Shown one piece after another: positions 4,910 through 61,538 of a stretch of 64,000 bases of DNA. A model generated the notes under the pieces. The model was not told the DNA's origin. It saw only the letters and a list, made by a program, of their open reading frames with translations, and made no database searches. The stretch's first letter is position 1. Every line of letters starts with the position of its first letter. The stretch comes from an uncultured Candidatus Saccharibacteria bacterium (lineage in GTDB: Bacteria; Patescibacteriota; Minisyncoccia; Phycocordibacterales; Zambryskibacteraceae). The translations under genes and the position numbers were made by a program. The stretch is from positions 132,314 to 196,313 of the forward strand of contig CAZXQA010000001.1 in the NCBI GenBank assembly GCA_964642835.1. The letters are read 5' to 3'.

Positions 4910-6481
4910 ATGCTCGGACGTGTATATCTCGCGGGGGCAATTGGTGCCCTCATTCTGCTGACTTCGGTCGGTTGCAACAAGAACACGGCGACGGCCATTG
5001 CCAACGCTTCGGTCAACGTCACGGGACCCAACACGGCTGTCACGGGGATCTCAATCGATCCCAACTCGGATCAGAACCTGATCCGAGAATCCCAAAACGG
5101 GATTTGCATCGCAAGGAAAACCTTTGTGGTGAAAGTGCTCCCTGACGGCGGCGGCTATTCGTCCTCGATCTTGCCCTCAACAGGGGCAACGTTCGCGGCC
5201 GGGGAGTTCGCAGCGACCGTGAACGGAACATATGTTCTCACGGTCTCGACCCCTGGCAACGAATACAAAGCCAGTGTCAGGATTAACGTCACTGGCGATT
5301 GCGGCGGCGGAAACGGAGAAAATCCGAATCCACCAACGAACCCACCAACCAACCCGCCTCAGGTGCCGGCAGCAACTGCCGCGCTCACAGCCTCTCCCTC
5401 AACGATCAACGTGGGGCAGGGATCTGACCTGACGTGGAGTTCTGCAAATGCGGGCTACTGTTCCTGGATCCAGGGTCTCTCCGGAGATGTTGGAAGCTCG
5501 GGCACCGTGCGGGTGACGCCAGGTGTTACCACGAACTACAGGATCCGATGTTTCGGATCTGGCGGCTCGGGTGATGCTCCTGCGACGGTGACGGTGAACG
5601 GACAGCCTCCGCCCCCGTCGACGGTGACTTCAATCATTGTGACACCAGCGAACGCGACGATCGCGTTGTCTGGCACACCCGGCTCCTGCTCTGCTTCACA
5701 GCAGTTCAGTGCCACGGTGTACGGAACGGGTTCGTACTCGTCTGCAGTTACGTGGTCAGCATCCGGTGGGAGCATCAGCTCTTCCGGAGTCTTCACGCCT
5801 ACGGCGGTGGGTACCTACATCATCACGGCTCGATCAGTGCAAAACCCGGCAGTATCGGGTATCACACAGATCACTGTCACTGCTGGTTCCTGTGTCACGC
5901 CACCAAGCGTTGTTTCTATCTCTGTGCAACCGAAGACGTTTACGTGCGTCGTCGGCGGTGAGTTCACTCTCGGTGCCAATGTTACTGTAACGGCGGGAAG
6001 CAATCTTTCCACCGCCGTAACATGGTCGCTCTCAGACCAGACTGTCGCTTCACTTAGAAGCACTACTCAAAATCAGGCAGTGTTCAATTGTCTGAAGGTG
6101 GGTACGGTCACAGCAACGGCACGGGCAATGGCAGATCCGTCGAAATCGGATTCCGCCACGGGCACGGTGACGCCTAACGGACCCCAGTGCACGTTTACCC
6201 CCAGCATTGCTCCGCAGCCTGACGGGAAAACGTTCATCATCAATACAGGACAGACCTTTACGGGTACTGCGTCTTGCACGGGTGGAAATGGGTTGCCCGC
6301 GGGGTACTCCTCGGATCCTTCGCGGGTCGGCATTACGGGAAATCAGCCTACGGGTGGTATCTACCAGACCGGTACGGTATTCACCATCAAGGGGCTTTTC
6401 ACCGGCCAGGCCACCGTAGGGATCCAGGCCTCACTCACGCAAACCAGTCCGTCAGTCTCGTGGACTGTCATTGTGAAGTAA
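4910..6481 (+). CDS. secreted/lipoprotein-like surface protein with bacterial Ig-like (Big_2-type) repeats
   Basis: Signal peptide with a possible lipobox (LLTSVGC), PTNPPTNPP tandem motif, several about 90-aa repeats containing ITVTA.../VTWS... Start uncertain (ATG 4904 or 4910; GGAGGG box at 4897-4902). Confidence 0.55.
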   Translation: MLGRVYLAGAIGALILLTSVGCNKNTATAIANASVNVTGPNTAVTGISIDPNSDQNLIRESQNGICIARKTFVVKVLPDGGGYSSSILPSTGATFAAGEFAATVNGTYVLTVSTPGNEYKASVRINVTGDCGGGNGENPNPPTNPPTNPPQVPAATAALTASPSTINVGQGSDLTWSSANAGYCSWIQGLSGDVGSSGTVRVTPGVTTNYRIRCFGSGGSGDAPATVTVNGQPPPPSTVTSIIVTPANATIALSGTPGSCSASQQFSATVYGTGSYSSAVTWSASGGSISSSGVFTPTAVGTYIITARSVQNPAVSGITQITVTAGSCVTPPSVVSISVQPKTFTCVVGGEFTLGANVTVTAGSNLSTAVTWSLSDQTVASLRSTTQNQAVFNCLKVGTVTATARAMADPSKSDSATGTVTPNGPQCTFTPSIAPQPDGKTFIINTGQTFTGTASCTGGNGLPAGYSSDPSRVGITGNQPTGGIYQTGTVFTIKGLFTGQATVGIQASLTQTSPSVSWTVIVK

Positions 6482-6549
6482 GCAAGTTCTTTCGAACACG
6501 CACCCGTTCAGCTACATGCTGGGCGGGTGTTTTTTGTTGTTCTGGTATA

Positions 6550-7608
6550 ATGCTCTCAATGGTAAAACAGGAGAGTAAAAGTGAAGGGGTGCTTTACCGG
6601 AAGTACCGGCCGCAAACCTTCGAGGATGTGATCGGTCAGGACCATATTGTGAAGGTCTTGAAGGGCGCTATCGCGCTCGGTAACGTTGCCCACGCCTATC
6701 TCTTCTCCGGGACGCGCGGTACGGGGAAGACCTCGATGGCTCGCATTCTTGCCCGCGCTATTGGCACCTCGGCCAATGACCTCACCGAGATGGACGCCGC
6801 GTCGAACCGTGGGATCGACGATGTCCGTGAGATTCGCGACTCGGTGAATACCTTGCCGTTCGAAAGTAAGTATAAGGTTTACATTATCGACGAGGTGCAC
6901 ATGCTCACGAAGGATGCTTGGAACGCGTTTCTGAAGACCTTGGAGGAACCGCCGGCGCATGTTGTCTTTATTCTCGCGACCACCGAGCTTGAGAAGGTGC
7001 CGGAGACCGTGGTCTCACGCTGCCAGACCTTCACCTTCAAGTCACCGAACCTCGCGACCCTTAAGGACTTCGCGCTCGCTATTGCAAAGAAAGAGGGCGC
7101 GACGCTTGAACCAGCGGCAGCTGAACTCGTGGCGCTTCTCGGAGATGGATCCTTCCGCGACACGCACGGGATCTTGGAGAAGATTGTGAGCTCAACGGCC
7201 GAGAAGACCATCACCCGCGCAGATGTTGAGGTGGTGACTGGCGCGCCGAAGGCCGAGCTTGTCTCCGCGATTCTGGAAGCAGTAGTGGGGAAGGACTTCG
7301 CGAAGGGCGCCGCCGCCGTCCAGGCGGCGGCGCAGGCGAACGCGGACATGAAGCTCTTTGCCAAACTCATTCTCGAGCGACTCCGCTTCCTCTTCCTCCT
7401 GCGTCTCAAGGCGGGGATGGAGGATTATATTTCCAAACAAATTTCCGAAGACGATTTCTCTTTCTTAAAGACGCTTGCCGCCAAGGCCGGCCCCCATCTT
7501 ACCTCGGAGACTCTCATCCGATTTATCGAAGCGTACGAAAATTCCGGCCGCACCTCGATCCCCGAACTCGCTCTCGAGATTGCGTTAGCAGATTCCACCC
7601 AGAAGTAA
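6550..7608 (+). CDS. dnaX: DNA polymerase III subunit gamma/tau (short form)
   Basis: YRKYRPQTFEDVIGQ, GTRGTGKTS Walker A, DEVHML Walker B, SRCQTF sensor. Start could be 6550, 6559 or 6589. Upstream TGGTATAAT at 6544-6552. The ORF-track extension back to 6274 is not coding. Confidence 0.85.
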   Translation: MLSMVKQESKSEGVLYRKYRPQTFEDVIGQDHIVKVLKGAIALGNVAHAYLFSGTRGTGKTSMARILARAIGTSANDLTEMDAASNRGIDDVREIRDSVNTLPFESKYKVYIIDEVHMLTKDAWNAFLKTLEEPPAHVVFILATTELEKVPETVVSRCQTFTFKSPNLATLKDFALAIAKKEGATLEPAAAELVALLGDGSFRDTHGILEKIVSSTAEKTITRADVEVVTGAPKAELVSAILEAVVGKDFAKGAAAVQAAAQANADMKLFAKLILERLRFLFLLRLKAGMEDYISKQISEDDFSFLKTLAAKAGPHLTSETLIRFIEAYENSGRTSIPELALEIALADSTQK

Positions 7609-9248: not shown

Positions 9249-9321
9249 TGCCCGATCGTCTAATGGTAGGACAGAGGCCTTTGAAGCCTTTAATTGGGGT
9301 TCGAATCCCTGTCGGGCAGCA
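9249..9321 (+). tRNA. tRNA-Gln (anticodon UUG)
   Basis: Cloverleaf folded by hand: acceptor TGCCCGA/TCGGGCA with U1-A72 and G73 (Gln identity elements), D-arm GTCT/GGAC, anticodon stem GAGGC/GCCTT with loop CTTTGAA, T-arm TGGGG-TTCGAAT-CCCTG. The 3' CCA is not encoded (gene ends GCA then A). Confidence 0.8.
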
Positions 9322-9375
9322 ACACAAAATTTTACGCATGTCCAGTTAGACATGTGTGAAAATTTTGTTGTCTCT
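9322..9375 (+). terminator. long inverted repeat (hairpin) immediately 3' of tRNA-Gln
   Basis: ACAAAATTTTACGCATGTC...GACATGTGTGAAAATTTTGT, about 19-bp stems. Confidence 0.45.
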
Positions 9376-9461
9376 GCCCAGAAGCGAGCAACATTTTGCT
9401 CGCGCCAGGGATTCGAAAGGATTTTCGTTATTGTGCGAAGCGAAATCGAAAATCACCCGCG

Positions 9462-9575
9462 ACGGTAGTCGAGAATCCCTGTCGGGCAGCCAAGTCGTGC
9501 GACGCACGAGACGCGTCAAAACAACAATATTTTAGGTCTGCATAGAGCGCACCCGTTTAGGACAGGGAAACCTGG
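9462..9575 (+). repeat. tRNA-Gln-derived intergenic repeat, copy 1 (3'-end+CCA module, hairpin, 5'-half-like module)
   Basis: TCGAGAATCCCTGTCGGGCAGCCAAGTCGTGCGACGCACGAGACGCGTCAAAACAACAATATTTTAGGTCTGCATAGAGCGCACCCGTTTAGGACAGGG. The first 17 nt equal the tRNA-Gln 3' end plus CCA. The last part matches the tRNA-Gln D-arm/anticodon stem (TAGGACAG) with the D-loop deleted. Confidence 0.7.
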
Positions 9576-9707
9576 GTGAGCTTCACATATTGAAAATAAC
9601 CAGATTTCATGTTAATTTAAATCCATAGTATTCAATAATTAGATTGCCCAATGAAGACACAAGGCTAACTTTATAAGTTAATTATCCGTTCAAGCGGAGC
9701 TTTGTGT

Positions 9708-11132
9708 ATGCAATCTAAAACTCCCATCAAAAGACCGGTTATTCTCTCATGCCGGCACCTAAAAAAGACATTTAACACCGTAGATGTTCTGAAAGACATT
9801 ACGTTTTCAATTCGCCAAGGCGAAAAGATTGGTGTTGTTGGACCAAACGGCTCAGGAAAGAGTACGCTTTTTGCGATGCTCGCCAATCTGATTGAAAAAG
9901 ATTCTGGACTCATTACATATGGTAAGGGAATAAATGTGGCTTACTTACCCCAAATCCATGAGCAGGAGGAATTAAGTGGTGGAGAAATGGCCAGGAAGGT
10001 ATTGAAGCCGATTATGGGTTCCGATGCAGATCTGTTTCTATTGGACGAACCAACTAATAACTTGGATGTGGATGGGTTAGAAATGGTTGAGAAATTCGTA
10101 AGAGAAAACTCCAGCGCTTTTCTAATCATTTCGCACGATCGTACATTTCTAGATCGTACCGTCTCCAAAATTATTGAGCTAGACCCATACTCCAAAACAG
10201 CCTACGTATATGAGGGTAATTATTCCTCATATATAGAAGAGAAAACAGCAAGAATTGAACGAGCCTGGCATAAATACAGCGACGCTCAAGAGAAGACTCA
10301 AAAACTTTCTAAAGAAGTTGACCAGAGACTTTCTTGGATGAAAAAGATTGAGCAAAAACGGCTCGATATCAAAAAGATTCCAAAGAACATAACTGAAAAG
10401 CCTCACGCTGCGGTTTTGCGTGACAAAGAAGCCAAGGCGGGCAGAAGGGCACGTCTCCTTAAGGATAGGCTTGAAGCTCATAAAGAAGAAGTTAAAGCAG
10501 AGATTGAAAAGCCTGCTCGCGAGCTTCCATTGAAAATTAACTTTGAACCAGTGCGAGGCAGTACCAAGGTTCTGAGTCTCACTAAAGTTGTAAAAAAGCT
10601 GGGTTCAAAAGTAATTGGACCAATCGATGTCTTTATCCAGTATGGGGATAGGGTTCACATAACAGGTAAAAATGGAGTTGGAAAAACAACACTTCTTAAG
10701 CTTATGTTAGGTGAAATGGTGCCAGATAAAGGAGAATTTGTTGTAGGGGAAAACGTTCGCACTGGGTATGTAGAACAATTGAAGGATAGAAATTCTCTAT
10801 CTCAAACAGCCTTAGAGCATTTCCTTGAAAAGACGAAACTCGATCAAACAAATGCTCGCAAAATTCTCAATCGTTTCCGTATTACAACGGAAGATATTGG
10901 TAAAAAAGTTGGCGAATTAAGTCCAGGAGAGTATTCAAGGTTGGTGATAAGCGAATTGGTTGCGATTCAGCCAAATTGCATCATTCTCGATGAACCAAGC
11001 AACCATCTTGATCTTGAGGTTCTGGAAGAGCTTGAAAAGGGGTTGGTAAATTTCCCAGGTACGTTGATTGTGGTGAGCCACGATAGATATTTTGTCGAGA
11101 AAATTAAACTCACCAGAGAAATTTCTCTGTAA
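9708..11132 (+). CDS. ABC-F family ATPase (tandem ABC domains, no TMD; EttA/Uup-like translation factor class)
   Basis: Two Walker A motifs (GPNGSGKST, GKNGVGKTT), two signature/Walker B sets, charged inter-domain linker. GGAG box 8 nt upstream of ATG 9708. Confidence 0.9.
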   Translation: MQSKTPIKRPVILSCRHLKKTFNTVDVLKDITFSIRQGEKIGVVGPNGSGKSTLFAMLANLIEKDSGLITYGKGINVAYLPQIHEQEELSGGEMARKVLKPIMGSDADLFLLDEPTNNLDVDGLEMVEKFVRENSSAFLIISHDRTFLDRTVSKIIELDPYSKTAYVYEGNYSSYIEEKTARIERAWHKYSDAQEKTQKLSKEVDQRLSWMKKIEQKRLDIKKIPKNITEKPHAAVLRDKEAKAGRRARLLKDRLEAHKEEVKAEIEKPARELPLKINFEPVRGSTKVLSLTKVVKKLGSKVIGPIDVFIQYGDRVHITGKNGVGKTTLLKLMLGEMVPDKGEFVVGENVRTGYVEQLKDRNSLSQTALEHFLEKTKLDQTNARKILNRFRITTEDIGKKVGELSPGEYSRLVISELVAIQPNCIILDEPSNHLDLEVLEELEKGLVNFPGTLIVVSHDRYFVEKIKLTREISL

Positions 11133-11164: not shown

Positions 11165-11335
11165 GGGCGCCTTAAGAGCTACCCATCTTGAGCAGGGAAC
11201 TTTTTAGCTATTTTCAATGGTTCGCTCGTTGTAAAATAAGACTATTCTGGGACTCGGTTCGATTCCAAGACCCGCAGCCAAGTCGAGCTTAGCTCGAGAT
11301 GTGTTAAAACAACGATATCAGATACATATAGAATC
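11165..11335 (+). repeat. tRNA-Gln-derived intergenic repeat, copy 2 (long form with 5' AGCAGGGAACTTTTTAGCTATTTT module)
   Basis: Shares about 130 nt with copies at 18630 and 25753 (…CCCATCTYGAGCAGGGAACTTTTTAGCTATTTT…AAAATAAGRSTATTCTGGGACTCGGTTCGATTMC…GCAGCCAAGTCGAGC…). Confidence 0.65.
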
Positions 11336-11352
11336 TATCGCTACACTTTTGA

Positions 11353-13800
11353 TCAATTATTTTGTGTTTGAGTTGTCGTGACGGATGCACTTGGTGCGAT
11401 ACGAAGAAAGAGAATTAGGAGCAGGCTGAATTCGAAAGCGCCAATGATCGGAGCGCTCCATGCGAGTCCTAAGAGGCCAAATGGGATACCAAGCCCGAAC
11501 AAGGCGAGGAATTTTGCCGTATGCGTGCTGATTTCACTGATGTAGAGCGTGCGGGTCTTTCCGAATGCGGTGAGCGCCGCCCGCAGAAGTCCGACCGGTG
11601 CAAAGGCGACACACATGAACATGATCTGAAAGTAAATAACGGATTCTGGATAGTTTGGAAAGAGGATGCTGTATACAAAAGGAGCGCACGCTATTCCGAA
11701 TATGACCATCGGTATCGTGAGAAGGAAAAGAGCCCCCGTTTTACGGAGTATCGAGCGCTTAAGTTCGGGGGTGTGTAGGTGCGTGCTTAGGTGCGGCAAC
11801 GTAATCGTGCCGATGGGGAGAAGCTGGAATACTTTCATGATTGGCGTTGCGGCGAATGTCTGGATGGCGGTGGCGGTAGGGCCAAGAAGCCACCATACAA
11901 AGATTTTATCGAGGTTTTCCGAAATGGTACGCAATATCTGCATGGCGGTAAGATGGAACCCGAGGGAAAGGGAAGAATCGCTCTCGGGACCGACTGCCTG
12001 CCGACGTACGGTCAGAAATACGAGTATCCCGACAATCGTTTGGACACCCAGGACCCCTGCGACAATAACGATAAGGTTGTTTGAAAGAAGAAGTATCGGG
12101 ATGCTCCCGAGCGCGAGCCCGACGAAATATATGACGGTTACGGATGCGCTCACTCCAAAGCGCTTTTTGCCCTGCCAATAGTTCATGGCAAAGACGCTGA
12201 AGGTGTCGGTGAGCGGTACAAACGGAGCGGAAACAACAAATGCCCAGCCAAGTGAAGAGTTTCCGCTAAGGAGAAACCATGCGCCGATGACCGAGGCGGC
12301 GAGCGTCCCGAGCATGCCCCATCGTAAGCGCGCCCGTAGCATCGGCCACACACTACCGTCATTGCCTTGGGCCACCGCGCGTACGAGCGCGTTGTTCATA
12401 CCGGGAAGCGTGGAGAGGCTGAGTATGCTAAGCGTGGCTATAAGATAGTTGTACGACCCAACCACTTCGCGCGGCACGCGGGCCGCCATCGTCGTCACTA
12501 CCGCGAGCGAAGCGAGCAAGGCTCCGAAACGGCCGATCGTAATGTAGAGCGCGTTGTGCGTCGATTCCTTTAGCGGCATGGCGTCGGGGGTGCGGAGGCG
12601 TTCGCGAGAGCCGCGTATGCCGAACATGGTTCGAAGGCGAATCGCATACTTTCGGGCGGCAAACTTTATAAATTGCCGCAGGTTAGAAACACCATATGTC
12701 TGCATGAGATATGCGACAAATCCGAGCGGGCTACGGTTTGTCTCATGTTTCCAGTATGCATACCAAAGAGTTGGTACGTTGCCGATAGGCGAATAGCGTT
12801 CCTCGTGTATGGTATTCGCGTAGTTTTCGTACGCTCGCCGCTCATTCCTTGAAAAGGGGACGGCTTCTAACTGTTCAAGAAACCAGGCGGGAATCGGCGC
12901 TTGCCAGCGCTCTTTGAGGTAGCGGGCGGCAAGGAAAACTTCAAGGCTGAATCCAAATCGCCGCGCCGATGCCGCTACCGCTTCCCAGTCGACTGGGAAG
13001 GCCTCCATAGCACGAAGTGCGTCTGCAACCCAACGTAGCGTACGCTGGCTGTTTCCTTCGGTGCCATGAATCATGAGATGGATAAGAAAATACTCATTCG
13101 AGAGCCGGAAGCACGGTATGCCGTCGATATCCATGCGTACAGCCGTTTGCCACAGAACTGTGCGAAGAGCTTCGGATGAAGGGGTTTTTAGAAGAAAAAG
13201 ATCGATAGTAGGCGTGTGGTGCGAAAGTGAGAAGATGTTCCAATGGACGTCAACTTCGAGATCACCAGGCCCTATGAAGAGCGTCTCCTTAATGACCTGG
13301 TAAATGCTCGAGACGGGATGGAGTGCGTCGGGCGCATAGGGGATACCATGATGAAAGCCATGTTGATGCAAGAGGGTTGTCATCTGGTATCCGTATTCCG
13401 GCGGTATGAGAATATCGGCATCGCCCAAAAAGCGTGAACCCCGGTCGCGATAGACTTCCAATAGGAGTGGTGTACCCTTTAGGACGAGAATGGGGATGTG
13501 GTGTTTGTCGCAGAGCGTGGCGATACTCTTGGTGATTGCAAGAATGCGTTGGTTGCGCACCCAGGCGCTACGGTATGCACCTTTGATACGATCGTAATAC
13601 TCGTCTTTTATACCCAAACGCTGCATGCGCAGATAGATGAGGGGTACAAGACGGAGATAAACGCCATCGATGCTCTCGAATGTATTGTGCTGAATCCAGA
13701 TCCGCCAAAGGCTCGGGAAATCGCTGTCGCGACATAAAACAAGTTCAAGAAAGGCTTCTTCGTCGAGTGTGGGAAAGCTGTCTGGGTATGGAAGAGGCAT
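11353..13800 (-). CDS. fusion protein: N-terminal uncharacterised nucleotidyltransferase (NTP_transf_5-like) + C-terminal Wzx-like polysaccharide flippase (about 12 TM helices)
   Basis: 815 aa. N-terminal half has LGDADILIPPEY (GDxD nucleotidyltransferase motif) and is soluble. C-terminal about 400 aa is polytopic with oligosaccharide-flippase-like helices. Confidence 0.6.
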   Translation of the reverse strand: MPLPYPDSFPTLDEEAFLELVLCRDSDFPSLWRIWIQHNTFESIDGVYLRLVPLIYLRMQRLGIKDEYYDRIKGAYRSAWVRNQRILAITKSIATLCDKHHIPILVLKGTPLLLEVYRDRGSRFLGDADILIPPEYGYQMTTLLHQHGFHHGIPYAPDALHPVSSIYQVIKETLFIGPGDLEVDVHWNIFSLSHHTPTIDLFLLKTPSSEALRTVLWQTAVRMDIDGIPCFRLSNEYFLIHLMIHGTEGNSQRTLRWVADALRAMEAFPVDWEAVAASARRFGFSLEVFLAARYLKERWQAPIPAWFLEQLEAVPFSRNERRAYENYANTIHEERYSPIGNVPTLWYAYWKHETNRSPLGFVAYLMQTYGVSNLRQFIKFAARKYAIRLRTMFGIRGSRERLRTPDAMPLKESTHNALYITIGRFGALLASLAVVTTMAARVPREVVGSYNYLIATLSILSLSTLPGMNNALVRAVAQGNDGSVWPMLRARLRWGMLGTLAASVIGAWFLLSGNSSLGWAFVVSAPFVPLTDTFSVFAMNYWQGKKRFGVSASVTVIYFVGLALGSIPILLLSNNLIVIVAGVLGVQTIVGILVFLTVRRQAVGPESDSSLSLGFHLTAMQILRTISENLDKIFVWWLLGPTATAIQTFAATPIMKVFQLLPIGTITLPHLSTHLHTPELKRSILRKTGALFLLTIPMVIFGIACAPFVYSILFPNYPESVIYFQIMFMCVAFAPVGLLRAALTAFGKTRTLYISEISTHTAKFLALFGLGIPFGLLGLAWSAPIIGAFEFSLLLILFLRIAPSASVTTTQTQNN

Positions 13801-13807
13801 GGAAATA

Positions 13808-14497
13808 TTAACGCATTGAACGTCTACGATCGATACTGGCCTTCATGATCTTGAGATAGTCGCTATGTCCGGCGAGGTTGAGAGTTGTATTAGTTTGGTG
13901 AACACGCCGTAGATAGAGTACTTCTTGAAGCATGATATGTTTCAGACCAAATTCTTCCGCTCGCATTGTCCAGTCAATAAATTCTCCGATACGATACGCC
14001 TCGTTGAAAGGTCCGACTTTCTTCATGCTCGCTGCCCGTCCAAGAAATGTGGCGGATATTCTGTTGGCAAGAGGCCCCTCAAGAAAGCGTTTTGTGGTGC
14101 GAACAGAATCAGGCAATTCGGGGCTGATAAAATTTTCTAACATACAGTGAACAATGTCGAGATCTGGATGTGTATCGAACATTTCCATTTGTCGTGCAAG
14201 CTTATTTGGTTTCCAAATATCATCAGCGTCGGCGAGCGCGATGAAGGAGCCTCGTGCGATGCGGATGCCCGAGTTGCGTCCAGCGGCAATGCCGCGATTG
14301 GCACGGTGAGATATTACGGTGATTCGGTCGCCGAACGTCTTGAGGGTGGCAGAGGTGGCGTCTGTCGAACAGTCGTCTACCACGATAAGCTCAAGAGGGG
14401 TATATGTTTGGTCAAGAATGCTGTTAATGCTTTCGGCAAGATACGGTTCGCCATTGAGTACTGTCATAACTACGGAGACAAGAGGATTCATACTCAT
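13808..14497 (-). CDS. glycosyltransferase family 2
   Basis: 229 aa. VSVVMTVLNGEPYLAESINSILDQTY, DDCSTDAT, ADADD (DxD). 4-nt overlap with the upstream kinase gene. Confidence 0.85.
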   Translation of the reverse strand: MSMNPLVSVVMTVLNGEPYLAESINSILDQTYTPLELIVVDDCSTDATSATLKTFGDRITVISHRANRGIAAGRNSGIRIARGSFIALADADDIWKPNKLARQMEMFDTHPDLDIVHCMLENFISPELPDSVRTTKRFLEGPLANRISATFLGRAASMKKVGPFNEAYRIGEFIDWTMRAEEFGLKHIMLQEVLYLRRVHQTNTTLNLAGHSDYLKIMKASIDRRRSMR

Positions 14498-15624
14498 AGA
14501 GAGGGAGCGAGAGACGCCGGCCGGGCGTCAAGAAAGGCGCGTATCGTTTCGGGTACGGCGCGCACGTGAGGGCCCAACTCAAGAATAAAGCACGGTGTCT
14601 TCCCAATGATATCGGCGAGAGAAGAGGTCTTCGATGAGGGTGCGAGCGGAAGTTGAAAAAGGGTAGTCGGCACCAGGGCAAGCATGGCTTCAAGTTTTGT
14701 GGCGGGGATAATGCGCGTATGCGAGGCGATGCGCGGAATGAAAATCGCCGCAAGCGGCGCGCACTCCTTTAATTGCCGGGGAAATAGTTCGGATAGAAAC
14801 ACGATCGCTTTTTCAGCCTCTTTTTTCCCGACGCCCTCCGCATTCCAGATAGAGGTGCGAAATTCGGGGAAGTTGGGGAGTTGCTCGGGCTTTATTTTGA
14901 CGGAATTATAAAGGCTGTGCACGCTATTTTGCTCAATGAGAACATAATCGTCCCCGATATAATCCATACCCGACATGAGGCAGGAGAGCGCGGTGGTTGA
15001 TTTTCCCGAGCCGCCCACGGCAGATAACAGCACGGCTCCATTCTCTGTGCCCACCGCGGCTCCATGAACAAAGTGAATGTCGTGATGGGAGAAAAACCAA
15101 TGCAATATAGTGCGCAACGGCGCCGCATGCATCCACTCGGGCACGGCGGCGGCATCATGAATCCAAAAGTAGGCTGTCTGCGAGGCGTAATCGTAGAGAT
15201 ATAGTATGTCCTCGCCGCGCACGAATACGCCCCGGAACGTCGGGTCTGACTCCTTTGCTTTGTCGGGAGTTTCCAGGTTGCCGTATGCAGGATCAGACCA
15301 AGGGCCGCCTAGCGGTACGCCGGAGGAAACACTATCGAGCAGATGAATGGTAAGATCGGGTTCGGCATTACTTGCGGTGGGCAGGTGCGCGAAGGCGCGC
15401 GCGGCGAATTCTGCAAAACGCGGGGCATGCGCACGTATTCGGACGGTTTTACCGGCGATGCGGCGTGTCGTATCGATCGAAGATTTTGCCGAAATGACGG
15501 CTTCAAATGCGGGGACAAATACTTCATCGAGATAATCTCGATGAATAGTGGCGTAATGTTGCATTACGACGGTGTGTGCGTTCTGAGCCATGCGGTAAGT
15601 TTTTGTTTTTCCGACTCGCACCAA
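14494..15624 (-). CDS. HPr kinase/phosphorylase-related P-loop kinase (HprK-related kinase family)
   Basis: 376 aa. GAVLLSAVGGSGKSTTAL Walker A of the HprK C-terminal-domain type, upstream HGAAV block. Lacks the HprK N-terminal domain. Confidence 0.65.
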   Translation of the reverse strand: MVRVGKTKTYRMAQNAHTVVMQHYATIHRDYLDEVFVPAFEAVISAKSSIDTTRRIAGKTVRIRAHAPRFAEFAARAFAHLPTASNAEPDLTIHLLDSVSSGVPLGGPWSDPAYGNLETPDKAKESDPTFRGVFVRGEDILYLYDYASQTAYFWIHDAAAVPEWMHAAPLRTILHWFFSHHDIHFVHGAAVGTENGAVLLSAVGGSGKSTTALSCLMSGMDYIGDDYVLIEQNSVHSLYNSVKIKPEQLPNFPEFRTSIWNAEGVGKKEAEKAIVFLSELFPRQLKECAPLAAIFIPRIASHTRIIPATKLEAMLALVPTTLFQLPLAPSSKTSSLADIIGKTPCFILELGPHVRAVPETIRAFLDARPASLAPSL

Positions 15625-15637
15625 ATTAGAGAATCCG

Positions 15638-16003
15638 TTAGTCCGCCTTTCGCTTCGGCCAGCCCATAGCGTCCACGTCGTGAATGGGGTCGGTGAGAAT
15701 CATTTCCTGCATGTCGGTATAGATTTCGACCGCGGGCGCCTGAAATACCGCTTCGTCCGCAAGATCCCCCGCCTGCTCGGTCTCTCTGATCAGCCCTTCG
15801 GAGAGGAGGGTAGCGACGAATGCGGAGATAGTAGAATTCCCGAGAGGAATAGCTTTGCCGTTGCCTATGGCCGCCCATAACGCAGTCCCGTCTTGGTTCA
15901 TGCTGTAATACGAGCCGGTTTCGATATTGATGACGATCGTCTCATTCTCAAGCGTCTCGCTGATAGCGGTTTTCGAATTTATGGCGTAGGTTTTTGCACT
16001 CAT
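15638..16003 (-). CDS. PqqD-family protein (RiPP recognition element-type peptide chaperone)
   Basis: 121 aa. ETLENETIVINIETGSYYSMNQDGTALWAAIGNGKAI matches the PqqD/RRE pattern (…L.n..tg.yy.LN..g..iW..l…). Confidence 0.65.
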   Translation of the reverse strand: MSAKTYAINSKTAISETLENETIVINIETGSYYSMNQDGTALWAAIGNGKAIPLGNSTISAFVATLLSEGLIRETEQAGDLADEAVFQAPAVEIYTDMQEMILTDPIHDVDAMGWPKRKAD

Positions 16004-16041
16004 GAGTAGTTATTATACTTATCTTTGAGAAATGGAAAAGA

Positions 16042-17292
16042 TTATGGCCGTATTATCTCTCCTCTCTTCTCCGCGTTGCGCACCAAGTTCGTCGCAGAGA
16101 CAGCGTCGCGCACGGCCTGAGAGGAATGATGCTTCCGCACCCACGAAGCGGCCTCGGCGCAAAGCCGCTCGGCCAACCCCGGATCATTTAAAAGGTTGAC
16201 GCAGGCCTCAGCAAACGCTTCGGGTTCATCGGCGATGAGAAGGTGGCGATTGTGCTCAACTCCCAGTCCTTCTGCGCCGATGGCGGTTGAAACCACCGGG
16301 CGGCCAAGCCCGAACGCTTCAAGAATTTTTACGCGGGTGCCGCCTCCGGATCGAATCGGTACAAGGCAGATAGAAGCATTTTGATACACCGGCATGAGGT
16401 CCGCGCGGTTGCGGTCAAAAATGATACCGGGAGTGCCATCGGGGCGAAAGGACGAAGGCGGATTAGCGCCTACCAAATGAAGTTGCAAGGCGCCCTCGTG
16501 CAGCGCTTGTATGCGCGGCCATATTTTATCTACCAGAAACTTTGCGCCGTCGAGATTGGGGAAGTAGTCCATTTTGCCGACGAACATGAGGGTGCGCGGC
16601 AGACTGTCGGGCGGAGGAGGCAGGCGCGAGGCCTGATGCGTTGCATTAGGAATCGCTACGACGCGCTCCGGTTCGGTAAGCGCGCTTATGTTCTCCTTTT
16701 CGCGCGTAGAGGCTACGTAGATTTCTTGGAACTGAGGAAGTAAAACGCGTTCCATCATGCGAAAGAGATGAAGCCCACGCTGCAGTTCCTCGACCTTTTC
16801 GGGCGGAAGACCCGGAGTTTTGAGAAACCGCAGCTGCCGTTTCGAAAGCATCTCATCTAAATCCAGATACACCGGCTGGAGACGGTCGAGTATCAGACGG
16901 ACAAAAACGGCGGTGTCGAATGCAAAGAGTAACGTAGCGTCGATGGCTTTTTCGGCATGAAGCTTTGCAATGAGCTCGGGGGCTTCTTGGGTGGTCGCAT
17001 ATACGGATGAGGGCGAGGCTCCGGCGGAAGCTCGGCGCTCATCGAGCGTATCACTCATATGCAGGTAGGTTATTGAGGCGAAACGAGCAAGGAGCGGCGC
17101 ATCAGGCTGTCCCGATAGAGCATCCGCGTAGATAATTACTACGTGTATGTTAAAGGAATCAGCCAGCGCGTCGAGGATGTGAGCGGCGCGTTGCTGACTG
17201 CCCGTGCCGAGGCGAGTGGGTTGATCGCGCCATATCCATAAAAGATTCGGGCGAGAATCTGCAGATTTTGAGGTAGCGTACATTGCGACCAT
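16042..17292 (-). CDS. glycosyltransferase family 1 (GT-B, GT4-like)
   Basis: 416 aa. C-terminal GGGTRVKILEAFGLGRPVVSTAIGAEGL, the E-x7-E nucleotide-sugar binding region. Confidence 0.85.
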   Translation of the reverse strand: MVAMYATSKSADSRPNLLWIWRDQPTRLGTGSQQRAAHILDALADSFNIHVVIIYADALSGQPDAPLLARFASITYLHMSDTLDERRASAGASPSSVYATTQEAPELIAKLHAEKAIDATLLFAFDTAVFVRLILDRLQPVYLDLDEMLSKRQLRFLKTPGLPPEKVEELQRGLHLFRMMERVLLPQFQEIYVASTREKENISALTEPERVVAIPNATHQASRLPPPPDSLPRTLMFVGKMDYFPNLDGAKFLVDKIWPRIQALHEGALQLHLVGANPPSSFRPDGTPGIIFDRNRADLMPVYQNASICLVPIRSGGGTRVKILEAFGLGRPVVSTAIGAEGLGVEHNRHLLIADEPEAFAEACVNLLNDPGLAERLCAEAASWVRKHHSSQAVRDAVSATNLVRNAEKRGEIIRP

Positions 17293-17323: not shown

Positions 17324-17369
17324 TCGTTGCATAGAGCGGTCCCTCTTAGGACTCGAACTTTGGTATAAT
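17324..17369 (+). promoter_or_regulatory. conserved promoter module (extended -10, TGgTATAAT) for the NUDIX operon
   Basis: CGTTGCATAGAGCGGTCCCTCTTAGGACTCGAACTTTGGTATAAT. Nearly identical modules precede the genes at 39066 and 58127. ATG lies 12 nt after the TATAAT. Confidence 0.6.
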
Positions 17370-17381
17370 TTCGATATTGTT

Positions 17382-18629: not shown

Positions 18630-18790
18630 TAGATGCTACCCATCTCAAGCAGGGAACTTTTTAGCTATTTTTACACTCGGGCTCATTGCAAAATAAGGCT
18701 ATTCTGGGACTCGGTTCGATTACTAGACCTGCAGCCAACTCATGATAGGTTATCGCGCTCGAGACGCATTAAAACAAGGACACCGTAGCA
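18630..18790 (+). repeat. tRNA-Gln-derived intergenic repeat, copy 3 (long form)
   Basis: CTAGATGCTACCCATCTCAAGCAGGGAACTTTTTAGCTATTTTT…GGACTCGGTTCGATTACTAGACCTGCAGCCAACTCATGATAGGTTATCGCGCTCGAGACGCATTAAAACAAGG. Confidence 0.65.
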
Positions 18791-18839: not shown

Positions 18840-20270
18840 TTAGTCTAATCGACTAAAAAGATTATGAGGCTTAGCATTAGCCAGAACGGCCTTCTTAATA
18901 AGGTTGCTGGTTTCGGTCATAATCGGATTCAAAAAAAAACCGATGGAGTATAGTTCTTGCACAAGTTGAATAATGATCTCCTGGGCGGCAGATTTATCTT
19001 CTTTCACTAATTTGAATGGCTCGGTTTCTGCTATCTTTTCATCAAGTTCACCGACCTTCTGCCACACAAAATCGCAAGCCGCACGAAAATCATACACTGA
19101 AAGCGCATCCTTAAACTCGGCAGGAAACTCATCGGCAAGGCCTTCCTTGATTGGACCATCAAGATGAGTTTCGGCCATCTTCATTATTCGCGCGGTAAGG
19201 TTACCAAGCCCATTGACCAAATTGGCGGTATAGAATTCGTCCATCTTCTCCCAAGTCAAATCAGAATCGTCAGTAGGGTGAACATGCCGAAGCATAATGT
19301 ACCTCGTTGCATCTGTGCCATAGCGCTTTATCAAATCATACGGATCGATAACATTGCCGATGCTTTTACTCATTTTATGACCACCACTGTTTATAAAACC
19401 GTGATAGAAAACCTGGTCTGTCGAGGGAAGATTGGCGCTTCTAAGCATTGCTTGCCAGATAATAGACTGGAACCTAACTTGATCTTTTCCGGCTAATTGA
19501 AACGTCTCATTTTCTACCCAAAACTTTCGGAACATACCCTCTTTATCTTCAGGCCACCCAAGACATGAAATGTAGTTCACCAGCGCATCGAACCAGACAT
19601 AGACTACGTGCGCATCATCGTCGGGTACCGGGATACCCCAATCCATTCGTGACTTCTCGCGCGAGATAGATAGATCCTCGAGGCCCTGTTTAACAAAATT
19701 CAATGCTTCGTGACGGCGAAAATCAGGTAGAATGACACCCTCTTGTGAGAGATACTGCTCTAGAAAATTTTGATATTTGGAAAGTCGGAAAAAGTAATTC
19801 TCCTCCTCTATTTCCTCCGGTTCGATCTGGTGCTCCGGGCATTTGCCGTCGACCAGGTCGCTTAAATTCTTAAAGGCTTCGCAACCTACACAGTAGAGAC
19901 CTTTATACTTTTTTTTGTAAATATCACCCGCTTCTTCCCACAATTTCCAGATGTGCTGAACGGCGCTTGTGTGGGCGGGGCTTGTGGTGCGGATAAAACT
20001 ATCGTAAGAAAGATCGAGTGCGTCCTTGAGAGTCGTAAACTCTTTTGCGTATTTATCAACGTACTCTTGGCGGTCGATACCTTCCTCATCGGCTTTGCGA
20101 GCTATTTTCTGACCATGCTCATCCACGCCTGTATTAAAGAAGACTTCGTGTCCCAGGGCGCGCCAAAAACGAGCCAGGGTGTCGGCTTGCACAAATTCGA
20201 GCGCATGGCCCATATGCGGCGAAGCATTGACATACGGCAGAGTCGTAGTTATATATCGCGGCTTGTTCAT
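18840..20270 (-). CDS. metG: methionyl-tRNA synthetase (short form)
   Basis: 476 aa. PYVNASPHMGHALEF (HIGH-type), KMSKSIGNV (KMSKS), Zn knuckle CxxC…CPEH. Confidence 0.95.
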   Translation of the reverse strand: MNKPRYITTTLPYVNASPHMGHALEFVQADTLARFWRALGHEVFFNTGVDEHGQKIARKADEEGIDRQEYVDKYAKEFTTLKDALDLSYDSFIRTTSPAHTSAVQHIWKLWEEAGDIYKKKYKGLYCVGCEAFKNLSDLVDGKCPEHQIEPEEIEEENYFFRLSKYQNFLEQYLSQEGVILPDFRRHEALNFVKQGLEDLSISREKSRMDWGIPVPDDDAHVVYVWFDALVNYISCLGWPEDKEGMFRKFWVENETFQLAGKDQVRFQSIIWQAMLRSANLPSTDQVFYHGFINSGGHKMSKSIGNVIDPYDLIKRYGTDATRYIMLRHVHPTDDSDLTWEKMDEFYTANLVNGLGNLTARIMKMAETHLDGPIKEGLADEFPAEFKDALSVYDFRAACDFVWQKVGELDEKIAETEPFKLVKEDKSAAQEIIIQLVQELYSIGFFLNPIMTETSNLIKKAVLANAKPHNLFSRLD

Positions 20271-25752: not shown

Positions 25753-25945
25753 CTCTAGACGCTCCCCGTCTCGAGCACGGGAACTTTTAAGCTATTTCTA
25801 GGTTTGGGCTATCGTAAAATAAGGGTATTCTAGGACTCGGTTCGAGTCCCTGTCGGGCAGCCAACTCGTGAGGCGCACAAAACGCGTCAAAACAACGATA
25901 TTTTAGGTCTGCATAGAGCGCACCCGTCTAGGACTCGAATTTTTG
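25753..25945 (+). repeat. tRNA-Gln-derived intergenic repeat, copy 4 (long form, full tRNA 3' module)
   Basis: …GGACTCGGTTCGAGTCCCTGTCGGGCAGCCAACTCGTGAGGCGCACAAAACGCGTCAAAACAACGATATTTTAGGTCTGCATAGAGCGCACCCGTCTAGGACTCGAA. Confidence 0.7.
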
Positions 25946-26488: not shown

Positions 26489-26711
26489 GGGAGAATTATA
26501 ACAAATTTCTCTAAATAACAGTGTTCCGAGGAGGGTCCGAATGTTAGAATAAAAAGTGTCAAAAAAGCCTTGCGAGGTCTCGCGGTGGTGGTTCCGAGAC
26601 CGAGAAGGCCAGCAAACTTGAGCTAGCACGAGATGCTTACAAAATAAGCTCTCCAACTAGCCGAGGTCTATCCTGTAATTGCATACCTGCTGAGAGCAGT
26701 ATCCAGAACAA

Positions 26712-26745
26712 AAAGCACCCAGTCGGGTGCTTTTTGTTTTTGACT
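26712..26745. terminator. bidirectional rho-independent terminator
   Basis: AAAAAGCACCCAGTCGGGTGCTTTTTGTTTTT, T/A runs on both sides. Confidence 0.6.
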
Positions 26746-26751
26746 TGCCCT

Positions 26752-26769
26752 ATACCCCCTAGGGGGTAT
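26752..26769 (+). promoter_or_regulatory. putative CsoR operator (perfect 18-bp GC-core palindrome) overlapping the csoR-copA promoter
   Basis: ATACCCCCTAGGGGGTAT between TTGACT (26740-26745) and TATAAT (26769-26774). Resembles known CsoR operators (ATACCC…GGGTAT type). Confidence 0.6.
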
Positions 26770-26774
26770 ATAAT

Positions 26775-27056
26775 ATGTTCATGAAATATATGGAAGATAA
26801 AAGTAAGGGGAAAATTATTCGTCGCCTTAGACTCATTGAGGGTCAGATTCGAGGTTTGCAAAAGATGGTTGAAAGTGACACATACTGTATTGATGTGATC
26901 ACCCAAACTTCTGCAGTCAAACAAGGACTCTCTAGTATTGAAGACTTATTGCTCGAAAATCATCTTGGTGGATGCATTCTGAATCAGGTGAAAGCTGGGC
27001 AGACTGAAAAGGCGAAGCAAGAGATTTTAAAAGTTTATAAGCTAAAGAGAAAATAA
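26775..27056 (+). CDS. csoR: CsoR/RcnR-family copper-sensing transcriptional repressor
   Basis: 93 aa. RLRLIEGQIRGLQKMVESDTYCIDVITQ…ENHL..C: the Cys-His-Cys metal site of CsoR. Start may be 26781 or 26790. Confidence 0.8.
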   Translation: MFMKYMEDKSKGKIIRRLRLIEGQIRGLQKMVESDTYCIDVITQTSAVKQGLSSIEDLLLENHLGGCILNQVKAGQTEKAKQEILKVYKLKRK

Positions 27057-27059
27057 TTT

Positions 27060-29354: not shown

Positions 29355-29356
29355 TT

Positions 29357-30364
29357 ATGAAAGCATACACATTACACGTATCGGGTACCCACTGTGCGTC
29401 ATGCAAAATCTTAATCGAAGATGTTTTAAATGATCAATATTATATTAGTAGTGCACAAGTAGATTTAAAAAATCAAACCTTACATATAGAAACTGTGAGT
29501 GAGAAATCTCCAGAAGAATTAGCAGTTTTACTTACTGAGAAGATAAGGCCAAACGGTTATACAGTATCAGTAGAAAAGGTTTTGATAGAAAAACAAAAAG
29601 ATGATGTTATCTGGAAAGCACTACCTATAGGGTTAGTATTCTTAATACTTTTCTTTGTATTACAAAAGTCAGGGCTATTAAATCTTGGTATCGGTGGTAC
29701 AACCACGCCTGCCACAAGTTTCATCATTGGGTTAATCGCATCTGTATCAAGTTGTCTTGCGGTGGTTGGAGGACTTGTTCTATCACTCTCAGCAAAAATC
29801 TCTCAAGACGATGTAAGTGATACAAAAACTTTCATACTTTTCCATATCGGAAGACTCGTTAGTTTTGCGCTCCTTGGCGGAGTGCTTGGCTTAGTTGGGA
29901 GTGCTATAGGAATCAGTTTTACTTTTACTGCAATCCTAGGGATTGTTGCGTCAACAGTAATGCTCCTATTGGGACTTAATCTAGTCGGAGTGTTCAAAAA
30001 GAATAAAGTTGCGTTACCTTCAGGAATTTTTAACTTCTTCCGCAAAATCGAACACAAGACTCTAACTCCTTTAATAATTGGATTTGCTACATTCTTCTTA
30101 CCTTGTGGCTTTACTCAGTCGATGCAAGTAGTAGCACTATCTAGCGGTTCATTTATTTCAGGATTACTTATTATGCTTGCGTTTGCTCTCGGTACGCTCC
30201 CAATGCTTTTGCTCCTGTCGTTTGGGGGAGCATCACTTGCTCATGGGAAACATGCACCACTTTTCTTTAAATCTGCTGGAGTGGTAGTGATAGGTCTTGG
30301 AATATTTGCACTGCTTGCAGGTCTGGCAGGACTCGGAATTATTAATCCTTTATTTAATATATAA
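29357..30364 (+). CDS. HMA-domain fused membrane protein (TauE/SafE- or DsbD_2-like 6-8 TM permease), putative copper handling
   Basis: 335 aa. N-terminal GTHCASCKILIE HMA domain, then a polytopic region with conserved Cys pairs (SSCLAV, LPCGF). Confidence 0.65.
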   Translation: MKAYTLHVSGTHCASCKILIEDVLNDQYYISSAQVDLKNQTLHIETVSEKSPEELAVLLTEKIRPNGYTVSVEKVLIEKQKDDVIWKALPIGLVFLILFFVLQKSGLLNLGIGGTTTPATSFIIGLIASVSSCLAVVGGLVLSLSAKISQDDVSDTKTFILFHIGRLVSFALLGGVLGLVGSAIGISFTFTAILGIVASTVMLLLGLNLVGVFKKNKVALPSGIFNFFRKIEHKTLTPLIIGFATFFLPCGFTQSMQVVALSSGSFISGLLIMLAFALGTLPMLLLLSFGGASLAHGKHAPLFFKSAGVVVIGLGIFALLAGLAGLGIINPLFNI

Positions 30365-30372
30365 TTAACTTT

Positions 30373-32050: not shown

Positions 32051-32365
32051 GTATATATTGGTGCCAGACCAGTAAACCCTGCATAGCTATGCAGACTAGG
32101 GAATTCGTCGCATACTCGCTATGGGCCTTAGCAAGATTGACCCACTAAGATATAATGTTATGGTGTGAAAGTTTAAGTGCTGTGGCCTAAACTCTTGGTG
32201 CGAATCAGGAGCATGGTCAAAAATCATAGGACATAAAGAACCCATCATTAGGGCATGTCCTATGTTATAGGGGGAAACTCCTATAGGGGGCTTCGGCCTC
32301 TCCTAGTGGTGGGCTTTTTGTTACAAAAAAACCACCATTAATTATTACTTTAATCTTAATAATTT

Positions 32366-38874: not shown

Positions 38875-38877
38875 TAT

Positions 38878-39062: not shown

Positions 39063-39065
39063 GTT

Positions 39066-61534: not shown

Positions 61535-61538
61535 AACT

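Follow-up and report, generated by a model that had tools for sequence, protein, structure and literature searches.

The Ccr large serine recombinases of staphylococcal cassette chromosome mec (SCCmec) act at the 3' end of rlmH/orfX. Most of the serine integrases that have been characterised are directed at protein-coding genes, and the tycheposons of Prochlorococcus and other tRNA-anchored islands reportedly depend mainly on tyrosine recombinases and on long blocks of identity by which the tRNA is regenerated. Bacteria of the candidate phyla radiation (CPR) have tiny genomes, and their gain and exchange of accessory genes are poorly understood. Here we analyse 64,000 nucleotides of an uncultured Candidatus Saccharibacteria bacterium (contig CAZXQA010000001.1, positions 132,314 to 196,313; hereafter the window), in which each of two tRNA-Gln genes is followed by an array of gene cassettes. 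We consider it probable, at roughly 0.6, that both genes are attachment sites of integrative elements that a system of the large serine recombinase (LSR) type has serially stacked into these arrays; parts of this system can be read directly from the sequence comparisons, and other parts we infer from them. The best reading is thus site-specific serial accretion like that of SCCmec or the tycheposons, with a recombinase of the serine rather than the tyrosine class. Elements would have been inserted one after another, and the tRNA-3'-end-like repeats would be the junctions between neighbours. The left end of an LSR element (an R arm) would begin right at the ..CAG|C of the tRNA, and its right end (the L-b arm) would close with an element-borne mimic of the T-loop-to-acceptor 3' strand of tRNA-Gln, so that the tRNA would remain host-made while the element brought G73, CCA and the trailer. 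Short cassettes of one to three genes with R and L-b ends would be non-autonomous derivatives mobilised in trans.

The arrays resemble SCCmec in that an LSR is encoded, one chromosomal site is used at the 3' end of a conserved gene that is left functional, tandem cassettes are separated by repeated att-type junctions, many cassettes lack a recombinase, and the cargo is of resistance type. They differ from it in that the apparent target is a tRNA gene (C71-A72 of tRNA-Gln) and not a protein gene, a single LSR stands in place of the CcrA/CcrB pair, the right end mimics ~20 nt of the tRNA, cassettes go down to single genes of ~0.9 kb, the host belongs to the CPR, and the LSR travels with a terminase-like/methylase module and a LOOT RNA. 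Prochlorococcus tycheposons, tRNA-anchored islands and Islander-type tandem tDNA islands (PMC4383910) share the tRNA hot spots, the streamlined host genomes, cargo modules parted by partial tRNA repeats and the many modules that lack an integrase. In contrast to these, the recombinase here is of the serine type, the shared core is ~4 nt (CAGC), and most of the tRNA-like fragments appear to be element-borne mimics. Serine-integrase temperate phages and satellites of the phiC31/Bxb1 type share the domain architecture (Resolvase, Recombinase and Zn ribbon), the attP-like dyad about a central dinucleotide and the minimal identity between attP and attB, whereas relatives of the element described here sit at tRNA-Gln, tRNA-Ser and tRNA-Trp genes, and a zone of variable cargo separates the tRNA from the LSR gene. 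Our literature search brought up no LSR that targets a tRNA gene, and for CPR bacteria it yielded no account of either such LSRs or arrays at tRNA-Gln. The system seems distinct from SCCmec and from tRNA-island arrays in its serine recombinase at a tRNA 3' end, its tRNA-mimicking attP half-site, its near-integron cassette granularity and its CPR host.

Exactly two tRNA genes were found in the window by ARAGORN and Rfam, both for glutamine and both on the forward strand. Together with the sequences that follow them, they are arranged as listed here.

9249-9320, + strand: tRNA-Gln(UUG), ARAGORN; Rfam RF00005 at 60.7 bits against a gathering score of 29; anchor of array A.
9322-9370, + strand: hairpin A, a terminator-like trailer, fold of -20.1 kcal/mol (z -5.1); left end of an insert of ~155 bp.
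9371-9475, + strand: body of mini-insert A, with an inverted copy (9403-9417) of the T-loop/T-stem/acceptor 3' strand of the tRNA at 9300-9314 (15 nt, 93%).
9476-9575, + strand: displaced host-identical tRNA 3' end (9476-9490, CCA encoded) and R1 arm, with hairpin TCGTGCGACGCACGA, GACGCGTC, ..ATAGAGCG and CACCCGTTTAGGAC; attL-like, severed from the tRNA body.
53345-53416, + strand: tRNA-Gln(CUG), ARAGORN; Rfam RF00005 at 53.2 bits against a gathering score of 29; anchor of array B.
53418-53461, + strand: hairpin B, a trailer with arms 53418-53436 and 53443-53461, 100% complementary, -29.1 kcal/mol (z -10.3); left end of the second mini-insert.
53462-53567, + strand: body of mini-insert B, with an L-c arm (TGTGACCGAGAGCGTACTCGCGG) and an inverted copy (53475-53488) of the T-arm/acceptor 3' strand at 53396-53409 (86%).
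53568-53655, + strand: displaced host-identical tRNA 3' end, R1 arm and terminator hairpin, leading into an EEP-nuclease cassette.

This arrangement bears out the initial annotation, which had recognised two tRNA-Gln loci (UUG and CUG), each with a long hairpin and a repeated 3' end, although the tRNA ends it gave (9321 and 53417) lie 1 nt too far downstream. The tRNA bodies, described there as identical outside the anticodon arm, are largely so, with one further difference in the T-loop (GAATCC versus GAGTCC), and the downstream sequence said to be common to the two genes is indeed present at both as the trailer CAA(C/G)CACAAAAT. Of the two hairpins that had been called perfect over 18-19 bp, hairpin B is perfect over 19 bp and hairpin A is imperfect, with 17-nt arms at 82% or, in the minimum free energy structure, 19 pairs with one bulge. 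The base of hairpin A is extended by an inverted repeat (9314-9338 and 9355-9379) that pairs GGGCAG of the tRNA with CTGCCC at 9374-9379. A simple terminator scan was passed by hairpin A only, not by B. Both loci also lie at switch points of composition, as had been noted: the GC content falls from ~55% to ~40% just after each.

The 15-mer at the 3' end of the tRNA, TCCCTGTCGGGCAGC, occurs six times in the window: the originals are at 9306 and 53402, and exact copies are at 9476, 25847, 53568 and 56158. The copies at 9476 and 53568 lie 170 and 166 nt after their originals, in agreement with the tRNA-3'-end-like repeat reported earlier at about 150-200 nt downstream. With up to 3 mismatches allowed, a scan gave 7 matches where 1.04 were expected, and no shuffle out of 100 had as many as 7. 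The repetition is genuine, and chance does not account for it. In the tRNA genes the 15-mer is followed by CAA, and in the copies of both loci by CCAA(G/C)TCGTGCGA..GCACGAGACGCGT, so that the similarity between the two loci continues past the displaced copies. The DNA in between, ~155 bp at locus A (9321-9475) and ~151 bp at locus B (53417-53567), carries no cargo at either locus and consists of the trailer hairpin, a structured spacer and a short left arm. Within 9249-9575 and 53345-53655, a cargo-less insert would have given the tRNA a new hairpin trailer and pushed the former tRNA-end/R1 junction downstream.

Taken alone, a tRNA followed by a hairpin and a repeated 3' end is ordinary att-site anatomy. 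The attL/attR-like architecture of tRNA-targeted integration proposed in the initial annotation holds insofar as the tRNA, its new trailer and the displaced 3' end are of att type, and fails insofar as the DNA between the copies is only ~155 bp long and without cargo. Likewise, both loci do look like integration hot spots, but the real islands lie past the second copy, as tandem cassette arrays. Duplication of the locus, which had been offered as an alternative, is not needed, since both Gln isoacceptors appear to be targeted by the same element families and since the copper cassette described below stands directly at tRNA-Gln in another CPR genome.

The larger pattern had been missed. A direct-repeat search and an nhmmer profile run on the window revealed a family of composite repeats of ~140 nt with at least 12 units, all on the forward strand: 9431-9570 (nhmmer E 4.6e-32; direct-repeat family D1), 11222-11358, 18683-18780, 25804-25944, 26576-26637 (degenerate), 38913-39051, 53533-53617, 55219-55305, 55986-56020, 56116-56254, 61524-61647 and 62409-62541, with partial units at 17328 and 58077. 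They form two arrays, A at 9.3-42.5 kb and B from 53.4 kb to beyond 64 kb, in which the units part co-oriented, mostly low-GC genes. These encode an ABC-F protein, two NUDIX proteins, a MetRS-like protein, a carbamoyltransferase, glycosyltransferases, a copper-resistance set, DHH and GrpB proteins, an EEP nuclease, a VanX-like peptidase, a 2'-5' RNA ligase, an ABC exporter, a methyltransferase, Ham1 and PNPOx. Single-gene cassettes of ~0.9 kb lie at 55.25-56.0 and 61.55-62.44 kb.

Each unit consists of a left arm of ~70-80 nt, a tRNA-Gln-like segment running from the T-loop GGTTCGA to the discriminator base, and a right arm that starts with C(C)A. The left arms are of three sequence types (L-a, L-b and L-c). 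Among the right arms, R1 reads CCAA.TCGTGCGA.GC.CGAGACGCGT...ATAGAGCG..CCCGTCTAGGAC; the others are a copper-type arm (CAAACTTGAGCTAGC...), R2 (CCGATTTTAAG...) and the hairpin trailer directly behind both tRNAs. Several R arms end in a TTTGGTATAAT-like box (TGnTATAAT-like) just 5' of the next open reading frame (ORF) or first cassette gene. The tRNA-like segment is either host-identical (..GTCGGGCAG) or ends in ..G(A/T)CGGCCAG, in ..GACCCGCAG or in ..GACCTGCAG. When the segments were compared with the host tRNA, as displaced native ends should match it, those at 9476, 25847, 53568 and 56158 were host-identical and those of the L-b units were not. The units of the arrays, with the cassettes they bound, are as follows.

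9702-11132, + strand: ABC-F ATPase in a single-gene cassette (Pfam ABC_tran twice and ABC_tran_Xtn), flanked by the units 9431-9570 and 11222-11358.
11178-11358, + strand: junction unit of L-a arm, foreign-type tRNA-Gln-like 3' end (GGTTCGATTCCAAGACCCGCAG) and R1 arm; direct-repeat family D2.
18635-18780, + strand: junction unit of L-a arm, foreign-type fragment (..ACTAGACCTGCAG) and R1 variant.
25761-25944, + strand: junction unit of L-a arm, host-identical fragment with T-loop (GGTTCGAGTCCCTGTCGGGCAG) and R1 arm; 92% identical to the unit at 9476.
55172-55305, + strand: attP-like junction of L-b arm, mimic fragment (..CACGAGACGGCCAG) and R1 variant; families D4 and D6; dyad 9/14.
55922-56129, + strand: cargo-less unit of L-b arm, mimic fragment (..GACGGTCAG) and R2 arm (CCGATTTTAAGTTTTTTGCAAGCGAAGCG..).
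56130-56254, + strand: unit of L-c arm, host-identical fragment and R1 arm; family D7; 95% identical to 53538-53594.
61524-61647, + strand: junction unit of ..CCCAGACGGCCAG and R1; dyad 7/14 (the 61551 junction).
62367-62541, + strand: attP-like junction of L-b arm, mimic fragment and R1; bounds the single-gene cassette 61657-62367.

The R2 arm (56016-56109) is 86% identical to the flank of tRNA-Gln in a relative, L115. Hairpin-type trailers and L-c arms were absent from every comparison locus fetched, and pattern scans of viral contigs for the R1 core and the L-b, R2 and L-a arms gave nothing apart from one chance match in a coding region (L130). An exact-protein look-up of the ABC-F cassette protein returned no record. 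The idea that left arms are decayed 5' halves of tRNA-Gln was discarded, as local alignment to tRNA positions 1-52 was no better than for shuffles (z < 2). A further motif, C(T/A)CGAGAC(G/C), recurs in direct orientation at three points of the L-b/R1 units (about -75, -15 and +20, counted from CCA); at the 38871 junction it occupies 38879-38893, 38957-38965 and 38991-39000, with equivalents in the other L-b units, and it may mark binding sites of an accessory protein. Two stretches of array A stand out by content. A 6-kb polysaccharide-synthesis block (11353-17292, reverse strand), situated between the full unit 11222-11358 and a partial unit at 17328-17377, has a near-core GC content of 50-56% within the otherwise low-GC array. 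The MetRS-like gene (476 aa; 18840-20270, reverse strand), which has genes for a carbamoyltransferase, a nucleotidyltransferase and a glycosyltransferase as its neighbours, may be a MetRS duplicate, a resistant version of the enzyme or a member of a small biosynthetic cluster.

Since CCA is encoded after the fragments, the units might act as RNA, either as CCA-ended tRNA-like minihelices that mark cassette transcripts for processing by RNase P/Z, in the manner of tRNA punctuation, or as a small RNA transcribed together with tRNA-Gln. Both mini-inserts have better folds than their shuffles, the fragment pairing with the upstream inverted copy (spacers including the fragment: z -3.9 for 9376-9520 at locus A and z -5.2 at locus B), and three relatives (L019, L029 and L081) consist of the tRNA, ~135 nt and a strong terminator at this position. 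Against such a role, no Rfam family covers the units: in the window Rfam returned only tRNA and LOOT, and the L019 unit had no credible match at E up to 10. Whole units are not consistently above shuffles as RNA or as single-stranded DNA (z +0.6 to -2.3), which spoke against both a conserved small RNA and an attC-like folded site; most units have no 5' partner for the acceptor strand, the left arms are unlike the 5' part of a tRNA, and unit sequences double as the ends of LSR elements. We therefore regard an RNA role as very doubtful, unsupported for the units in general and at most conceivable for the mini-inserts.

The arrays also recall integrons, in which small, co-oriented and often single-gene cassettes are separated by repeats of ~100-150 nt and growth occurs at an anchored end. 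An integron-like platform, whose attC-type folded sites are recombined in single-stranded form by an integron-type integrase, would suit the small co-oriented cassettes with their resistance or housekeeping-type cargo, and some units do have terminal inverted repeats (25841-25857 versus 25923-25939). However, no IntI-type gene was found, the units have neither an R''/L''-L'/R' organisation nor a common hairpin (single-stranded DNA folds z +0.3 to -2.3), and they carry direct-repeat motifs and a dyad core of the double-stranded type. Unlike integron cassettes, those described here have promoter-like boxes, and a serine recombinase is encoded within one of them. An integron of the familiar kind is thus scarcely credible. 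Inspection of the units by eye also showed no conserved 11-6-11 site of the dif/Xer type.

The recombinase lies within array A, in a block whose gene order and two ends agree with those of elements in two relatives (L127 and L128), for which reason we read 26.6-39.0 kb as one LSR element that is now internal to the array.

26576-26740, + strand: left end of the LSR element, with a degenerate fragment (..AAGGCCAG), a copper-type R arm (CAAACTTGAGCTAGC..CATACCTGCTGAGAGCAGTATCCAGAAC) and a terminator.
26775-30768, + strand: copper-resistance cargo, namely a CsoR-type repressor, a CopA P-type ATPase, DsbD_2/HMA and a cupredoxin (Pfam).
30761-32050, - strand: LSR with Resolvase (PF00239), Recombinase (PF07508) and Zn_ribbon_recom (PF13408) domains; PHROG 95 integrase, E 2.5e-64.
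32184-32301, + strand: LOOT RNA (Rfam RF03000, 75.7 bits against a gathering score of 46.4), divergent from the LSR gene.
32665-34597, - strand: small-terminase-like helix-turn-helix (HTH) protein and N6/N4 DNA methylase; the module stands beside the LSR also in L117, L127, L128 and L129.
38871-39067, + strand: junction of the LSR element's right end with the following cassette, attP-like, with an L-b arm, a tRNA-3'-end mimic (GGTTCGAGCTCGAGTCGGCCAG), an R1 arm and a TTTGGTATAC box.

Domain scans, which covered all window ORFs of at least 200 aa, identified this LSR as the only recombinase in the window; the search for integrase genes proposed in the initial annotation thus returned no tyrosine integrase and one LSR instead. 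At least 8000 proteins match it at E <= 1e-60. Among the matches listed, the homologues include about a hundred clusters that are 75-80% identical, and all those with a source name come from CPR/Patescibacteria. No structural phage genes were seen in the window element; relatives of it are listed as viral contigs in IMG/VR. Besides the window, 7 of 13 related LSR loci have a LOOT RNA (L117 3454-3581, L118 2016-2132, L119 5689-5807, L125 2242-2363, L126 3208-3333, L127 11395-11529 and L128 9707-9836), placed within or next to the LSR/terminase-like/methylase module; in the window, L118, L119 and L128 it is encoded on the strand opposite to the LSR gene, ~130-200 nt upstream of that gene. LOOT may serve these elements as a regulatory RNA; the main text of the LOOT source paper does not discuss LOOT.

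The copper cargo has 70% nucleotide identity to that of L081, and in L128 the same four genes lie between tRNA-Gln and the LSR gene. The cassette stands directly behind tRNA-Gln in both L081 and L128 and is array-internal in the window. Its copper-type arm likewise directly follows tRNA-Gln in L128, and the tail of this arm is common to L019, L029, L081 and L117. A perfect palindrome, ATACCCCCTAGGGGGTAT, overlaps a TTGAC..TATAAT promoter 5' of the CsoR-family gene (window 26740-27056) and is kept in three genomes (the window, L081 at ~470-520 and L128 at ~15330-15380 on the reverse strand); it resembles CsoR sites and is a putative copper-operon operator.

Relatives show the elements at tRNA genes in simpler settings. 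The closest homologues of the window's flanking genes (DprA at 825-1685, SerRS, Dus, DnaX and an HI0933-like flavoprotein) come from metagenome-assembled genomes (MAGs) of Parcubacteria, Paceibacterota and other Patescibacteria. In one Parcubacteria MAG (L019), DnaX and tRNA-Gln(UUG) are followed by one unit with a terminator, two DsbA genes and an M23 peptidase gene, whereas 33 kb separate tRNA-Gln(UUG) from the M23 peptidase gene at 42747 in the window; this difference marks array A as an insertion zone. In a contig from IMG/VR (L117), tRNA-Gln(CUG), a short arm and a terminator precede a convergent LSR gene (the product 61% identical to that of the window), an HTH gene and a methyltransferase gene. 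In an 840-kb contig (L128), tRNA-Gln(CUG) is followed by the copper-type arm as at window 26597-26735, csoR-copA-dsbD-cupredoxin, the LSR gene and LOOT, and the remainder of the element (~15 kb in all) comprises the terminase-like/methyltransferase module, Hachiman and an L-b arm with a tRNA-like fragment, after which core genes follow. A 767-kb contig (L127) repeats this layout over ~21 kb, except that the arm is of R1 type and the cargo is another. The fragment at its far end (..GGAGGCCAG) differs from the tRNA of L127 itself (..CACCCCAG) and is thus element-borne, not a displaced host end; the far end of L128 differs from the host tRNA as well. More distant LSR relatives are located near tRNA-Ser (L125 and L126) and tRNA-Trp (L129), the tRNA of L129 being followed by CCAAATCGTGCTAGCACGA. 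Defence genes are a recurrent cargo of the LSR elements in these relatives (L127 3180-4607; L128 2202-5782; L129 4146-5466 and 13122-19012): a protein with an SduA_C (Shedu) domain, HamA with a helicase (Hachiman), a type I restriction-modification system, and a gene pair with a faint ThsB_TIR match and a caspase-like peptidase domain.

The point of exchange can be narrowed down by comparison of junctions. In an alignment of seven L-b junctions (four from the window, one from L108 and one far end each from L127 and L128), conservation extends as far as ..GCCAGC, after which the sequences part into R1, R2 or host flank. A dyad is centred on the CA of CAGC: it scores 8-10/14 in the L-b junctions of the window (10/14 in 38871-39067), while the 61551 junction, with its different left arm, reaches 7/14. 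In all four scored window junctions the dyad peaks at shift 0, and shifted centres score 1-6, with one exception at 8. For L127 and L128, the reconstituted attP scores 9/14, and attL, attR and the reconstituted attB score 3-6; attL and attR share only CAGC(A). The two half-sites co-vary between variants, C.CGAG..GGC[CA]GCC..CTCGTG as against CTCAA..GC[CA]GC..TTGAG. Finally, five CPR genomes agree at 89-100% identity over the 115 nt that follow ..CAG, whereas their tRNA-Gln genes are only 74-88% identical, with matched T and acceptor stems. A flank so much more conserved than the tRNA bodies argues that mobile DNA starts at the tRNA 3' end. The boundary, the dyad and the five-genome flank together fit the core of a serine recombinase whose central dinucleotide falls in the last base pairs of the acceptor stem, and exchange would accordingly take place at the CA of CAGC, tRNA positions 71-72.

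The same junctions bear on whether homologous recombination would suffice. In competent CPR cells, RecA could swap or insert cassettes by way of the ~140-nt units, which would act as portable homology, and no site-specific recombinase would be needed. The units are long enough for this, their left and right similarities are mosaic with several break points, and a DprA gene lies at 825-1685; Saccharibacteria are reported to be naturally competent (PMC10187176). Such a mechanism does not explain why conservation halts sharply at CAGC in seven junctions, with the dyad centred there. In addition, the sites bounding the L127 and L128 elements share only ~4-5 nt with the host flank, and these insertions therefore cannot be RecA-mediated. 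As the general explanation portable homology is improbable, and RecA swapping via the units may contribute to the mosaic arms.

The host-identical copies point to an exchange elsewhere. Each displaced copy is host-identical and joined to R1, and so has the composition of an attL (host half-site plus R1); the dyad scores of these displaced tRNA-end/R1 junctions are correspondingly low and attL-like, at 4-6/14 (4/14 at 9476). At each locus the T-loop base (A or G) of the local tRNA recurs in the inverted copy and in the displaced fragment, so that the insertion must have exchanged 5' of the displaced copy, near the T-loop. Exchange at CA could not have brought a host half-site to lie behind a left arm of foreign origin; the inserts therefore imply a second point of exchange close to the T-loop, as do the L-a junctions, which have their best dyad on the T-loop GTT (8/10 in the 25761-25944 unit). 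This second exchange could be the work of another recombinase or reflect a secondary site of the LSR.

The arrays might alternatively be classic tyrosine-integrase islands, each of which brought its own tRNA 3' end, crossed over at the T-loop and displaced the end that was there before, their integrases having been lost or being located elsewhere and the LSR element being a passenger. The host-identical copies at 9476, 25847, 53568 and 56158 fit such a history. The tRNA homology always begins at GGTTCGA; the L-a arm is common up to the T-loop, where the best dyad lies, and is then followed by differing tRNA-like 3' ends; and the fragment and inverted copy of each mini-insert match the T-loop allele of the local tRNA. 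However, no Phage_integrase domain was found in the scanned window ORFs, in 10 downstream ORFs of L019/L029/L069/L002 or in the listed Pfam matches of L127-L129. A near-identical downstream arm is joined in five genomes to host-specific, internally paired tRNA 3' halves, so that crossover in the T-loop is excluded for this arm. At their far ends L127 and L128 carry fragments other than displaced host ends, and the sharp CAGC boundary does not fit a purely tyrosine-integrase history. On this balance tyrosine-integrase islands seem unlikely, though less so than the other alternatives considered here.

Several observations weigh against serial stacking by the LSR system. Exchange at CA fails to yield the four host-identical copies, the L-a junctions with their T-loop dyad and the inverted copies in the mini-inserts; a second mechanism is needed for these, and the window contains no candidate enzyme for it. 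Canonical LSRs pair attP with attB, so insertion at an attL-like, occupied tRNA would be non-standard, as would excision between two attP-like junctions. The short cassettes are tied to the LSR by shared end sequences only, and mobility is deduced only from comparison across genera; no recombination product, circular junction or same-species empty site was seen. At the distal end of array A (42.35-42.75 kb) there is no recognisable terminal junction. The close relative L115, reached via the HI0933-like flanking gene, has tRNA-Gln and one arm with no array; its synteny is rearranged, and L116 has no tRNA-Gln nearby. The core region of L115, the nearest relative sequenced, also contains a Y1 (IS200/IS605-type) transposase gene (6423-6956) that is absent from the matching window region.

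Contig ends can fall in these repeats. Two MAG contigs from one study (L009 and L017) end at the identical base of an R1-long arm (..CATACCTGC/T), and a short-read assembly of the window organism (L114) ends within tRNA-Gln(UUG), at the equivalent of window position 9283. Unit repeats break CPR assemblies, and arrays may be lost from MAGs in this way.

A wider and more tentative proposal, which we hold to be possible but not probable, is that the arrays belong to a CPR-wide, LSR-driven and integron-like gene-capture platform on tRNA-Gln, with relatives on tRNA-Ser and tRNA-Trp. Insertion by a serine recombinase that is both abundant and highly conserved would occur at the last base pairs of the acceptor stem, by means of an attP whose left half mimics the tRNA 3' end; single-gene cassettes, equipped with a promoter of their own and no more than the two ends of ~70-100 nt, would be mobilised in trans, become stacked and be exchanged among CPR lineages; the foreign-type fragments would be a record of earlier hosts or element lineages, and LOOT would be part of recombinase control. 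If this is true, a single recombinase family with at least 8000 close homologues would be a main route by which CPR bacteria acquire copper resistance, defence and housekeeping extras. The cargo acquired would include, in relatives, Hachiman, Shedu-like and type I restriction-modification systems, all stacked behind one tRNA gene. It would also give the orphan LOOT RNA a genomic context and explain the recurrent breaks of assembly at tRNA-Gln in CPR MAGs. Finally, a serine integrase with a natural, conserved tRNA target of ~40 bp would be of interest for genetic tools in CPR bacteria, of which few exist.

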